A stretch of 64,000 bases of DNA from a bacterium (lineage in GTDB: Bacteria > RBG-13-61-14 > DATKZS01): positions 256,001 to 320,000 of the forward strand of contig CAXXFL010000006.1 of assembly GCA_963674965.2 (NCBI GenBank). Reading direction: 5' to 3'. A program made the position numbers and the translations under genes. Positions within the stretch are counted from its first letter, which is position 1. Every line of letters begins with the position of its first letter. The notes under the pieces are model-generated. The model was not told the origin of the DNA. It saw nothing but the letters and a program-made list of their open reading frames with translations, and did not search any database. This document shows positions 20,944 through 29,642 of the stretch, in pieces.

Positions 20944-21225
20944 TTACTTTCCTGTGGCTTGGGCGATGACGTGGTTCCAAAACGGGTTGGCGAAAATGAG
21001 AATCATCGAGACCACGAAACAGTAGATGGCCGTTGACTCGATCATCGCCAGGCCCACGAACAAGGTCCGAGTTATGGTAGCGGAGGCATCAGGCTGCTGG
21101 GCCAACGAACTCAGTGCCGTTGCGACCGCCTTCCCTTCCGCCAGCGCAGGCCCCATAGTGCCAAAACCGGTGGTGATGCCGGCGATGACAATCGATGCCA
21201 CCGCGATAATAGTCATGTTATCCAT
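20944..21225 (-). CDS. atpE: N-type ATPase c subunit
   Basis: AQQPD loop, Glu in helix 1 (ALAEG), ESTAIY Na+-ligand motif. Confidence 0.95.
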   Translation of the reverse strand: MDNMTIIAVASIVIAGITTGFGTMGPALAEGKAVATALSSLAQQPDASATITRTLFVGLAMIESTAIYCFVVSMILIFANPFWNHVIAQATGK

Positions 21226-21285
21226 AGTATCTCCTATGATGGTTGTCTACCCAACCTTTTAAATTAGCTGAATTATTTTACAAAC

Positions 21286-22302
21286 TCAGCCTTTCGCTAT
21301 TACTCCGTTCGGGAAGTCCTCCCAAATCAAGTTTTCCTGTAAAGTGATGTAAATGATCTTCAAAAATTTGCGAGCCAGTGCGATGATGGCCTTGCCCGCG
21401 CCGCGCCTGGCCTTGATACGCTCGTAGAAGCTCGACAAATAAGGGCTGTAACGCTTGGCGATGAGGGCGCATTGGACCAGGGTAGTGCGGCCGAGTTTGT
21501 TGCCCCGCTTCGTGATCCGGCCCGAGCGGCTGGTCTCGTTCGAGTTGCTAACCCGGGGGACGATGCCGAAGTAGGAGGCCAGCTTGCCCTCGTCGGGGAA
21601 GTCCTTGACGTCAACGATCACCGACAAAAGTATGGCCGAGCCAAGGTCCCCGATACCCTTTATGCTCTTCAAATTCTTGTGACCGGGAAGCTGATTGCCC
21701 GAGTCCTTGATGGCGGCCTCAAGCTCCTTGACCCCGGCGTTCAAGCCCCGAATCTGCTCCACCAGGACGCGGACCTCGGTCTTGACCATGGGGTCGAAAG
21801 GTATCTCCTGCACCGTCTCAAGGCCCTTCTCGCTGGAAAGATATTCCTTCTTCAGGTTGATGCCGTGGGCCGAGCAGATGTTGTTGATCTTGTTCTTCAA
21901 GGCCGTGCGAAGCTTCACCAGCTTGTCCCGGCTTTGAGTGAGGCTTTTAACCTGAGCGTGTTCCTTGTTCGGCATCCTCACCTCCGGCAAAAGGCCCTTG
22001 GACAAAAACAGGGCAAGGCGTCTGGCGTCGTTGCCGTCCGTTTTGTTGACCGACTCGCTGATGACCTTGAACTGGCGAGGGTTGACAACCACGACGCGGG
22101 AAACGAGGCCGCGAACGGCGTCGTAAAAAAGGCGGACGTTGCCCGTGACCTCAACCGCGATCTCGTCGGACTCGCGAAGCGTCGAGCAAAACTTCTCCAA
22201 ATCCTCGAGACGCCAGTCCTTGAGATAGTTCCGTCCGTTCTCGGCCAGGACGCAAGAGGTGAAACAATTCCTGTGCAGATCGATTCCAATGTACCTTCCC
22301 AT
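21286..22302 (-). CDS. IS110-family recombinase/transposase
   Basis: YIGIDLH, AVEVTG, KTDGNDA (DEDD RuvC-like); IKGIG...YFGIVPRVSNS...ITKRGN C-terminal domain. Confidence 0.95.
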   Translation of the reverse strand: MGRYIGIDLHRNCFTSCVLAENGRNYLKDWRLEDLEKFCSTLRESDEIAVEVTGNVRLFYDAVRGLVSRVVVVNPRQFKVISESVNKTDGNDARRLALFLSKGLLPEVRMPNKEHAQVKSLTQSRDKLVKLRTALKNKINNICSAHGINLKKEYLSSEKGLETVQEIPFDPMVKTEVRVLVEQIRGLNAGVKELEAAIKDSGNQLPGHKNLKSIKGIGDLGSAILLSVIVDVKDFPDEGKLASYFGIVPRVSNSNETSRSGRITKRGNKLGRTTLVQCALIAKRYSPYLSSFYERIKARRGAGKAIIALARKFLKIIYITLQENLIWEDFPNGVIAKG

Positions 22303-22330
22303 TTCCTTACTCCTCCCTAGAAATAAATTT

Positions 22331-22492
22331 GATCTAAGGTCGGAGTAGACACGCTTTGAGGGGCCGCCAAACTCCTATACAAGGTCTAGCCTTACGGTGG
22401 CGCTCCAGTCGCGGGGCTGACTAATCTCCTTTACGAGGTCATAAGCCTCACGAAAACGATCCAGCCCACGACCCGCCTACTCCAATAGATCA
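22331..22492 (-). ncRNA. Candidate IS110 bridge/seek RNA, copy 1
   Basis: Outer stems GATCTA/TAGATC and TTGGAGTAGGC/GTCTACTCCGA enclose two arms with the same scaffold CGT-NAGG-loop-CCTN-GT, followed by AAAGGAGA (matches target) and ATAGGAG (matches donor junction). Confidence 0.7.
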
Positions 22493-22563
22493 TTCCTAAC
22501 CTAGTTGAAGTATTTACCACCTCAAAACTCTTCATTCATACCATCTCCTTTTTATGTCTGGGT

Positions 22564-22890
22564 TCATGCCTCAATGTTTTCCTCGGGTTCAGGCTCGGGC
22601 TTACGGACTCGCGTGGCGGCCGCGATATAAACCGCTGTCAGAATACTGAAAATGTAGGCCTGAACCATGCCGGTGAGCAGACCGAGCGCGGTCATGATGA
22701 TCGGAAAAATATAGGGCACAATTGTGAGTAGAATACCGATAATCATGGCGCCGCTCATCATGTTTCCGAACAGACGGATGGCCAGGGCCAGCGTGCGCGA
22801 AAGTTCGCTGATGATGTTAAACGGCAGCATGATGAACGTCGGCTTCACATAGGACTGGAGGTAGTCGCCCAAACGCATGTTTGGGTTCAA
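22564..22890 (-). pseudogene. atpB: N-type ATPase a subunit, C-terminal half only
   Basis: PFNIISELSRTLALAIRLFGNMMSG and VQAYIF; 5' half and upstream atpD/C/Q/R are absent. Confidence 0.88.
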
Positions 22891-28228: not shown

Positions 28229-28289
28229 CAATCTCTCCTATGATGGTTGTCTACCCAACCTTTTAAATTAGCTGAATTATTTTACAAAC

Positions 28290-29306
28290 TCAGCCTTTCG
28301 CTATTACTCCGTTCGGGAAGTCCTCCCAAATCAAGTTTTCCTGTAAAGTGATGTAAATGATCTTCAAAAATTTGCGAGCCAGCGCGATGATGGCCTTGCC
28401 CGCGCCGCGCCTGGCCTTGATACGCTCGTAGAAGCTCGACAAATAAGGGCTGTAACGCTTGGCGATGAGGGCGCATTGGACCAGGGTAGTGCGGCCGAGT
28501 TTGTTGCCCCGCTTCGTGATCCGGCCCGAGCGGCTGGTCTCGTTCGAGTTGCTAACCCGGGGGACGATGCCGAAGTAGGAGGCCAGCTTGCCCTCGTCGG
28601 GGAAGTCCTTGACGTCAACGATCACCGACAAAAGTATGGCCGAGCCAAGGTCCCCGATACCCTTTATGCTCTTCAAATTCTTGTGACCGGGAAGCTGATT
28701 GCCCGAGTCCTTGATGGCGGCCTCAAGCTCCTTGACCCCGGCGTTCAAGCCCCGAATCTGCTCCACCAGGACGCGGACCTCGGTCTTGACCATGGGGTCG
28801 AAAGGTATCTCCTGCACCGTCTCAAGGCCCTTCTCGCTGGAAAGATATTCCTTCTTCAGGTTGATGCCGTGGGCCGAGCAGATGTTGTTGATCTTGTTCT
28901 TCAAGGCCGTGCGAAGCTTCACCAGCTTGTCCCGGCTTTGAGTGAGGCTTTTAACCTGAGCGTGTTCCTTGTTCGGCATCCTCACCTCCGGCAAAAGGCC
29001 CTTGGACAAAAACAGGGCAAGGCGTCTGGCGTCGTTGCCGTCCGTTTTGTTGACCGACTCGCTGATGACCTTGAACTGGCGAGGGTTGACAACCACGACG
29101 CGGGAAACGAGGCCGCGAACGGCGTCGTAAAAAAGGCGGACGTTGCCCGTGACCTCAACCGCGATCTCGTCGGACTCGCGAAGCGTCGAGCAAAACTTCT
29201 CCAAATCCTCGAGACGCCAGTCCTTGAGATAGTTCCGTCCGTTCTCGGCCAGGACGCAAGAGGTGAAACAATTCCTGTGCAGATCGATTCCAATGTACCT
29301 TCCCAT
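28290..29306 (-). CDS. IS110-family recombinase/transposase
   Basis: Protein identical to 21286-22302. Confidence 0.95.
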   Translation of the reverse strand: MGRYIGIDLHRNCFTSCVLAENGRNYLKDWRLEDLEKFCSTLRESDEIAVEVTGNVRLFYDAVRGLVSRVVVVNPRQFKVISESVNKTDGNDARRLALFLSKGLLPEVRMPNKEHAQVKSLTQSRDKLVKLRTALKNKINNICSAHGINLKKEYLSSEKGLETVQEIPFDPMVKTEVRVLVEQIRGLNAGVKELEAAIKDSGNQLPGHKNLKSIKGIGDLGSAILLSVIVDVKDFPDEGKLASYFGIVPRVSNSNETSRSGRITKRGNKLGRTTLVQCALIAKRYSPYLSSFYERIKARRGAGKAIIALARKFLKIIYITLQENLIWEDFPNGVIAKG

Positions 29307-29334
29307 TTCCTTACTCCTCCCTAGAAATAAATTT

Positions 29335-29496
29335 GATCTAAGGTCGGAGTAGACACGCTTTGAGGGGCCGCCAAACTCCTATACAAGGTCTAGCCTTACG
29401 GTGGCGCTCCAGTCGCGGGGCTGACTAATCTCCTTTACGAGGTCATAAGCCTCACGAAAACGATCCAGCCCACGACCCGCCTACTCCAATAGATCA
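29335..29496 (-). ncRNA. Candidate IS110 bridge/seek RNA, copy 2
   Basis: Same sequence as 22331-22492. Confidence 0.7.
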
Positions 29497-29642
29497 TTCC
29501 TAACCTAGTTGAAGTATTTACCACCTCAAAACTCTTCATTCATACCATCTCCTTTGTCTATTTGCTTATCCTCTGGCAGCGCCAACATTTCGCGTCGCGC
29601 CGGCCGCCAACGAACCGGCGTCATAAGTTCTGAAACTCAGGC

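Follow-up and report, generated by a model that had tools for sequence, protein, structure and literature searches.

The window, meaning the whole 64,000-nt stretch of bacterial DNA analyzed here, carries an IS110-family insertion sequence of 1,314 bp at positions 21231 to 22544 (copy 1; its length counts one shared AGGAG), and the segment under study, 22331 to 22492, falls within the 249-nt left end of this element (22303 to 22544 plus the core). These and all window features below are on the minus strand. The right end measures 55 nt, and the recombinase gene occupies 21286 to 22302. A DNA search of the same genome recovered 10 full copies of the element at 100% identity, together with a 48-bp fragment. 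Alignment of the flanks of these near-identical copies set the exact ends and defined nine independent insertion sites. A second copy within the window (28235 to 29548, with its bridge RNA at 29335 to 29496) differs from copy 1 by one base, located inside the recombinase gene. At the left border of every copy AAAGGAG abuts the element start ATGGTATGAATG, CATCATAGGAG terminates every copy at the right border, and an ATG follows 5 to 9 nt beyond the right end at eight of the nine independent sites. For copy 1, the left target half-site AAAGGAG (22545 to 22551), which is identical at 9/9 independent insertions, is a host Shine-Dalgarno motif that ends, on its 3′ side, in the core AG, and the right target flank ATACTATGGATAAC (21216 to 21230) comprises the spacer and the ATG (21223 to 21225) of an ATP synthase c-subunit gene. 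The donor halves, placed by the flanks of the copies and by comparison of the ends, are ACCATCATAGGAG on the left (right end of the element, 21231 to 21243) and ATGGTATGAATG on the right (start of the left end, 22533 to 22544). The reconstructed target is supported by a contig of a related organism (run X3), which holds an uninterrupted, element-free site reading ...CAAAAGGAGATACTATGG. Copy 1 separates the ATP synthase c-subunit gene from a truncated a-subunit gene. The a-subunit open reading frame (22564 to 22890) encodes only 108 aa, matching profile positions 114 to 216 of 217; it lacks the N-terminal half and adjoins a complete phosphoglucomutase gene, indicating that the operon is rearranged or decayed on that side.

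The 338-aa recombinase contains both Pfam domains, DEDD_Tnp_IS110 (PF01548; E = 2.5e-15, 57 bits) and Transposase_20 (PF02371; E = 1.6e-21, 76.9 bits), each above its cut-off, and its start is preceded by a GGAGGAG of its own. It matched the IS621 and ISCro4 chains distantly (E = 6.6e-13 and 1.7e-12, respectively), the match to IS621 being chiefly in the C-terminal domain. A single-protein scan of a collection of genome contigs revealed one distant locus, and a phylum-wide genome search one distant match among 12 other genomes. An alignment of 51 recombinase homologues, in turn, led to 80 metagenome loci at 64 to 85% identity. Two more distant relatives proved informative for the RNA: a Tardibacter plasmid relative (L104), whose recombinase is 49.8% identical to that of the window, and an IS110-family element of Rhizobiales (L123 and L125 to L129), at 28.5% identity. 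In a recombinase tree of 17 rows, one of which (own_L105) is a 169-aa fragment and none of which is an IS621-type reference, branches were long, the deep forks remained open and the place of the Rhizobiales element was not settled. Kinship with the Rhizobiales element therefore rests on ends, target and weak RNA matches rather than on the protein.

Inverted repeats at the element ends are only 4 to 6 bp long, the longest across the junction being the 6-bp ACCATC/GATGGT. Elsewhere in the genome, two copies lie head to tail with one AGGAG in common (L003/L009, G000 C7:6724-9370), so that the sequence between them equals the expected circle junction. A run X3 contig links 22542 with 21229, 1,314 positions away, a join that is indistinguishable from this tandem pair. 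The right end plus its flank (ATAGGAG followed by AT) differs at one position from the target (AAAGGAG followed by A) and may invite a second insertion. The 48-bp fragment (L011, G000 C6:1074153-1074200) is a solo AAAGGAG with the first 41 nt of the left end and no element beyond it; the flank in which it lies is similar to the one left of the tandem pair. By eye, a TAGACA (21244 to 21249, candidate -35) stands 17 nt from a TATGAA (22535 to 22540, a weak candidate -10 element within the donor right half) across the tandem junction; a sigma-70 scan called no promoter-like site there. After insertion, the host AAAGGAG stands 5 nt before an ATG-AA that is conserved in the left end (22520 to 22544 and homologues). 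The frame that it opens reads ATG AAT GAA GAG TTT TGA here and spans 4 to 13 codons in relatives, and the same ATGAA forms an inverted repeat with a TTCAT in the right end, 4 bp long here and 7 bp in the Rhizobiales element. This conserved ATGAA may act as a mini-ORF, as a repeat or as a -10 element. The right end also contains a hairpin, GGTTGGGTAGACAACC, after a run of A (21241 to 21266, and L003:2796-2811); judged by its sequence, it is terminator-like on the opposite strand and would stop transcription entering the element from downstream.

An earlier note, made from the letters alone, had described 22331 to 22492 as a two-armed RNA resembling a bridge RNA, and the stems and loop sequences that it reported were all found in place on the minus strand. 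The RNA core (22340 to 22485) is bounded by a closing stem, P1 (22475 to 22485 with 22340 to 22350), around both arms. Arm 1, the target-binding loop (22408 to 22472), consists of an outer stem (22462 to 22472 with 22408 to 22419) and an inner hairpin (22435 to 22449), and arm 2, the donor-binding loop (22365 to 22402), of an outer stem (22398 to 22402 with 22365 to 22369) and an inner hairpin (22381 to 22393). As the earlier note had also observed, the scaffold is repeated, with a U, a hairpin with a bulged A, G-N and the guide succeeding one another in both arms. The minimum free energy structure of 22325 to 22500 reproduced the outer stem and arm 1 (-65.6 kcal/mol, z = -2.30); 3 of 200 shuffled sequences folded as well, so the single-sequence fold alone is only modest evidence. 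Homologues were more telling. At least 200 nt of upstream sequence was available at 68 of the 80 metagenome loci, and 65 distinct upstream sequences plus the window made up alignment A2 (n = 66). The proposed pairs were formed in 84.7% of its 2,892 cells, versus 28.5 to 43.0% when the partners were slid by one to three columns. The covariation score reached 0.139, compared with 0.109 for shuffled alignments, a value attained by none of 500 shuffles, and 13 pairs had changed on both sides. The P1 core GGAGUAGAC/GUCUACUCC is paired in 66/66 sequences and nearly invariant within the clade, and L104 shows a fully compensated replacement of it (GGUGAGGCGGA/UCCGCCUCACC). A covariance model built from this clade (R1) gave a full-length match upstream of the L104 gene (59.7 bits, E = 8.5e-14). 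Double changes affect three pairs of the arm-1 outer stem, the inner hairpins switch between AU and GC in 24 and 27 sequences, and the arm-2 outer stem is 99% paired, with one-sided changes only. The outermost stem assigned by the earlier note, GATCTA/TAGATC, is present in the sequence but is not conserved among the 66 homologous sequences: its 5′ strand found the better partner upstream in 31, downstream in 31, with ties in 4. At four helix positions, 42 to 66 of the 66 sequences have G-U pairs, which would be A-C mismatches on the other strand; this indicates that the RNA is read in the sense of the recombinase gene. A search of Rfam at E values up to 10 returned no family match, only one chance hit. 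The two-armed structure, kept with compensatory changes across 66 sequences, is real. A chance origin was considered and rejected.

Both arms could be parsed in 67 loci, L047 being the unparsable one. The 3′ side of arm 1 reads G-U-N-A-A-G-G-A-G-A-U-U-R-G-U across loci, and in the window (22424 to 22432) it comprises AAAGGAG (22426 to 22432), the left-target guide, and AU (22424 to 22425), a candidate handshake guide. The earlier claim that the loop repeats its target held at all nine independent insertions, where AAAGGAG is the same as the left flank. So did the expectation that loop and flank should vary together: in 50 of 56 loci the variable N repeats the letter at flank position -7, which in 14 of these is a letter other than A (3 T, 9 G, 2 C), and the next letter is identical to position -6 in 52 of 56, three G included. 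Neither count was attained by any of 5,000 permutations. Flank positions -8 and -9 bore no relation to the arm-1 3′ side in the same 56 loci. Having the same sense as the left flank plus AG, this 7-nt guide pairs with the bottom strand. The adjoining AU corresponds, in the same sense, to the two bases with which the left end starts. A handshake role is supported by L104, which carries CU at this position and whose own left end starts with CT; L034 is a counter-example to the pattern.

The 5′ side of arm 1 (GAUCGUUUUCGU, 22450 to 22461) is hypervariable and would be the right-target guide, antisense to the core plus the spacer. Scored by local antiparallel pairing against AG plus the right flank, it averaged 11.40 with the cognate flank and 9.95 with non-cognate flanks (n = 30), an excess that none of 2,000 permutations attained. 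This set leaves aside six loci in which a repeated GAGGAG or a duplicated right end opened the right flank; over all 36 loci the means were 11.03 and 9.75, and 6 of 5,000 permutations did as well. Contiguous pairing that begins at the core AG extends over 11 positions in L057, 10 in L025 and 9 in L102. A fixed-register RNA-by-DNA matrix for this side displayed a faint diagonal only. Within the genome of the window the picture is uneven. GAUCGUUUUCGU pairs at 9/9 positions with the flank of L005 and at 4/9 with the flank of copy 1 itself, and the nine flanks pair at 2 to 9 of 9 positions; the remark in the earlier note that ATCGTTTT fits the flank of copy 2 well, with wobbles, and that of copy 1 poorly was accurate. 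The nine occupied sites were not better matches to the arm-1 5′ side than other AAAGGAG sites in this genome: their mean score of 11.0 compares with 9.65 for all 2,039 AAAGGAG sites (P = 0.087) and with 10.78 for the 399 that have an ATG (P = 0.43). True start sites account for eight of the nine insertions versus 399 of the 2,039 AAAGGAG sites, an enrichment that could reflect selection after insertion.

The non-significant site test, the spread of pairing among the nine flanks and the faint diagonal of the fixed-register matrix are what would be seen if only the 3′-side guides worked, that is, if the 7-nt AAAGGAG and AUAGGAG matches directed insertion and the arm-1 5′ side were non-functional in this genome. 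We regard this as improbable. It is at odds with the cognate enrichment across the 30 or 36 homologous loci, with the 9- to 11-bp contiguous matches in L057, L025 and L102 and with 10-bp matches at two independent Rhizobiales insertions, and it would need either a 5′ guide or post-insertion selection to yield the start-site enrichment. A right-target guide on the arm-1 5′ side is supported by these sequence comparisons for the family as a whole, and it leaves the nine sites of this genome unexplained.

In arm 2, the 3′ side AUAGGAG (22372 to 22378) is the left-donor guide, of the same sense as the right end: it equals the last 7 nt of the element, both in the window and in all homologues for which a right end was found. 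The earlier proposal that this loop spells the circle junction stands for the right end and fails beyond it, since the next two letters mismatch the left end. Against the right flank, these two letters were identical in 12/31 and 11/31 loci, no better than shuffles, and a handshake reading of them was rejected for this lack of covariation. On the 5′ side, GCCAC (22397 to 22401) is the right-donor guide, antisense to the left-end start ATGGT with a mismatch at +1 and a wobble at +5, and it overlaps the arm-2 outer stem. Positions r4 and r7 of this side covary with donor position +4: within the clade, CCACC accompanies left ends in ATGG and UCAUC those in ATGA, a change that may represent a single event, and two registers fit. 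In L104, CCAGCUU pairs with GAG joined to CTGG in a 7-bp contiguous match.

The six Rhizobiales loci, whose records say "IS110 family transposase," decide between the registers. R1 matched them weakly, though consistently (13.3 to 16.9 bits, E = 0.0017 to 0.014), covering both arms and no closing stem P1, downstream of the recombinase gene in a right end of 262 to 264 nt. The left end reads (N)AAGGAG and then, from the border on, (G/A)TG(A/G)CATGAAAGAGG, and the right end closes with TTCTTTCATTGGAG. The ATG of an annotated gene lies 5 to 8 nt further on in five of the six (L125 to L129), whereas the flank of L123 has none. The element shares with that of the window the target, (N)AAGGAG followed after 5 to 8 nt by ATG, and the two-arm RNA with identical guide order, and its ends, CATTGGAG joined to (G/A)TG(A/G)CATGAA, are similar. 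It differs in the position of the RNA downstream of the gene, in the absence of P1 and in a 7-bp inverted repeat, CTTTCAT/ATGAAAG (by eye). Its arm-2 3′ side, AUUGGAG, equals its own right end, and the arm-2 5′ sides GUCAC, GCCAU and GCCAC accompany left ends GTGAC, ATGGC and GTGGC, respectively, i.e., three states with two compensated positions. For arm 1, the 5′ side AUGAGUGGCU of L125 is a perfect 10-bp complement of AG joined to CCACTCAT, all Watson-Crick. AUGGCAGUCU pairs at 10 positions at L128 (one wobble, with a 1-nt shift) and at 9/10 at L127; the fit is poor at L126, L129 and L123. Together with CCAGCUU of L104, these pairings place both right-hand guides on the 5′ side of their loops, reaching the core.

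Two Shine-Dalgarno-like heptamers in the loops, 30 to 130 nt upstream of the recombinase start, could also be imagined as decoy ribosome-binding sites in a 5′ leader controlling recombinase translation, rather than as DNA guides. Such a leader is the least probable of the readings that we weighed and was rejected, given that the letters beside AAGGAG covary with the DNA flank outside the element, that the arm-2 letters covary with the element ends and that the homologous RNA of Rhizobiales lies downstream of the gene. The matches of the arm-1 and arm-2 guides point instead to a bridge RNA targeting the Shine-Dalgarno motif AAAGGAG. With the sequence identities, the covariation and the conserved structure as observations, we consider it highly probable that an IS110-family insertion sequence encodes its bridge (seek) RNA in this stretch. 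The guide matches and the covariation bear out the earlier proposal of an IS110-family bridge RNA in which arm 1 is the target loop and arm 2 a separate donor loop.

The same genome hosts other members of the family. A second IS110-family element of about 1,608 bp is present in four copies (L106 to L109, at G000 C6:741799, C6:789096, C2:8760 and C2:619295), with a left end of about 110 nt, a right end of about 400 nt (IS1111-like) and a recombinase only 26% identical to that of the window. Its right end contains TCGTGAGGCTTACGACCTC, which is identical at 19/20 positions to the arm-1 inner hairpin of the window RNA and is followed by AAUAGAUGG, which matches the right end of that second element, CATAGATGGGTT, in the same sense. 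The inner-hairpin motif was not found in the plasmid relatives H2 to H4 or in IS5075. Two further, different IS110-family recombinase genes, L105 and L120, occur as single copies.

Published bridge RNAs fall into two layouts. As described in the IS621 reports (PMC11208160, PMC11208158), each IS621 loop runs stem, LTG, stem-loop, RTG. Pairing with the bottom strand takes up 8 to 9 nt on the 5′ side, and pairing with the top strand 4 to 7 nt on the 3′ side; both guides include the CT core, and the right guide is followed by two handshake bases. According to Siddiquee 2024 (PMC11187229), the top-strand match precedes the bottom-strand match (5′ to 3′) in the IS1111 seekRNAs of ISEc11, ISPa11 and ISKpn4, and the order is the reverse in the IS110-type ISEc21. 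A table in a 2026 review draws the same IS110/IS1111 split (PMC13604230). The window element resembles IS621 (Durrant 2024, Hiraizumi 2024) in its two-domain recombinase, in the RNA within a long left end upstream of the gene and in two pseudo-symmetric internal loops, target loop then donor loop. Each loop likewise reads both strands, the two readings overlapping in a 2-nt core that is CT if the site is taken on the other strand; bulged A residues occur in the stems, a G-U linker follows the inner hairpin, and the short 3′ guide is succeeded by two bases compatible with a handshake role. In contrast to IS621, each arm has its bottom-strand (left) guide on the 3′ side and its top-strand (right) guide on the 5′ side, an extra closing stem joins the arms and the recombinase is only distantly related. 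The earlier suspicion that guide order and fold might depart from IS621 was thus correct as to order; the fold is IS621-like apart from the extra closing stem. The top-strand match 5′ of the bottom-strand match is shared with IS1111 seekRNAs, whereas the RNA upstream of the recombinase gene, the long left end, the short right end and end inverted repeats of 4 to 6 bp are not; the subterminal inverted repeats of IS1111 are put at 7 to 17 bp (PMC11208160). The layout, therefore, mixes features of both published groups, with an IS110-type RNA position and an IS1111-type guide order. According to a 2026 preprint, numerous bridge RNA models depart from IS621; the present layout is not described in its text (10.64898/2026.10.21.760802).

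The stems being largely self-complementary, a similar shape might form on the opposite strand, and the reversal could then be that of an ordinary IS621-type bridge RNA whose strand, or whose element orientation, had been misread. We judge this very unlikely: beyond the conserved G-U pairs, R1 matched only the recombinase-sense strand in L104 and the six Rhizobiales loci, and reading the opposite strand would have the 5′ side match the right half on its bottom strand, an arrangement seen in neither published layout. When it is the DNA that is read on its opposite strand, a long 5′ guide ending in C-U, the core then being CT, is followed by a bulged-A hairpin, the G-U linker, a 3′ guide that is short (5 nt in addition to the core) and then A-U. 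This reading fits the IS621 scaffold, and the reversal is hence best described as a site polarity inverted relative to transcription. As far as sequence comparison goes, the guides of the bridge RNA appear arranged relative to the scaffold as in IS621, while the DNA sites would be bound in the opposite polarity relative to transcription.

Searches of the literature on bridge RNA or IS110 together with Shine-Dalgarno or ribosome-binding sites yielded no description of this clade. The type of site, however, has a precedent. For the IS110-family IS900 of Mycobacterium avium subsp. paratuberculosis, one report gives the target as CATGNNNNNNTCTCCTT and places the hed ORF, which is devoid of its own RBS and start codon, on the strand complementary to the transposase gene (PMC8141618). 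CATGNNNNNNTCTCCTT is the reverse complement of AAGGAGA-N6-CATG, i.e., a Shine-Dalgarno motif, a spacer and a start codon. Targeting between the Shine-Dalgarno motif and ATG is thus not new for the IS110 family, the IS900 motif being the same site type on the other strand. The IS900 recombinase, going by the strand of the hed ORF, would point against its target gene; that of the window element points with its own.

For transcription, protein binding, strand exchange and the order of cleavage we argue by homology. The RNA, made in the sense of the recombinase gene, would fold into a closing stem holding two internal-loop arms, of which arm 1 would read the target and arm 2 the joined ends of the element itself. 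The recombinase would then exchange strands at the shared AG (CT on the other strand), leaving the element between the Shine-Dalgarno motif of a gene and its start codon, in the same direction as that gene, and the ATAGGAG of the element would serve the target gene as a replacement Shine-Dalgarno motif. It is conceivable, and we give this slightly less than even weight, that the clade represents a third, transitional architecture between the published groups, in which the RNA gene changed sides within one lineage while guide polarity was conserved. Were this true, the clade and the Rhizobiales relative together would show that the scaffold conserves guide polarity and not RNA position. The element would, in addition, take advantage of ribosome-binding sites in sense orientation, replacing the Shine-Dalgarno motif that its insertion splits from the gene, and would set a short ORF opening with the conserved ATG-AA behind the motif of the host.

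Bridge recombinases are under development as programmable genome-writing tools, and their mechanism is known almost wholly from IS621 and close relatives. A natural scaffold with the opposite site polarity, which in the window also has an extra loop-closing stem and a long 5′ guide (up to about 10 to 11 nt), would place new constraints on what the RNA-protein core tolerates. In evolutionary terms, the layout weakens a clean separation of IS110 and IS1111 by RNA position. For genome biology, a widespread soil and sediment family emerges whose members insert with precision between Shine-Dalgarno motif and start codon, and the re-supply of the motif should make such insertions unusually tolerable inside operons.
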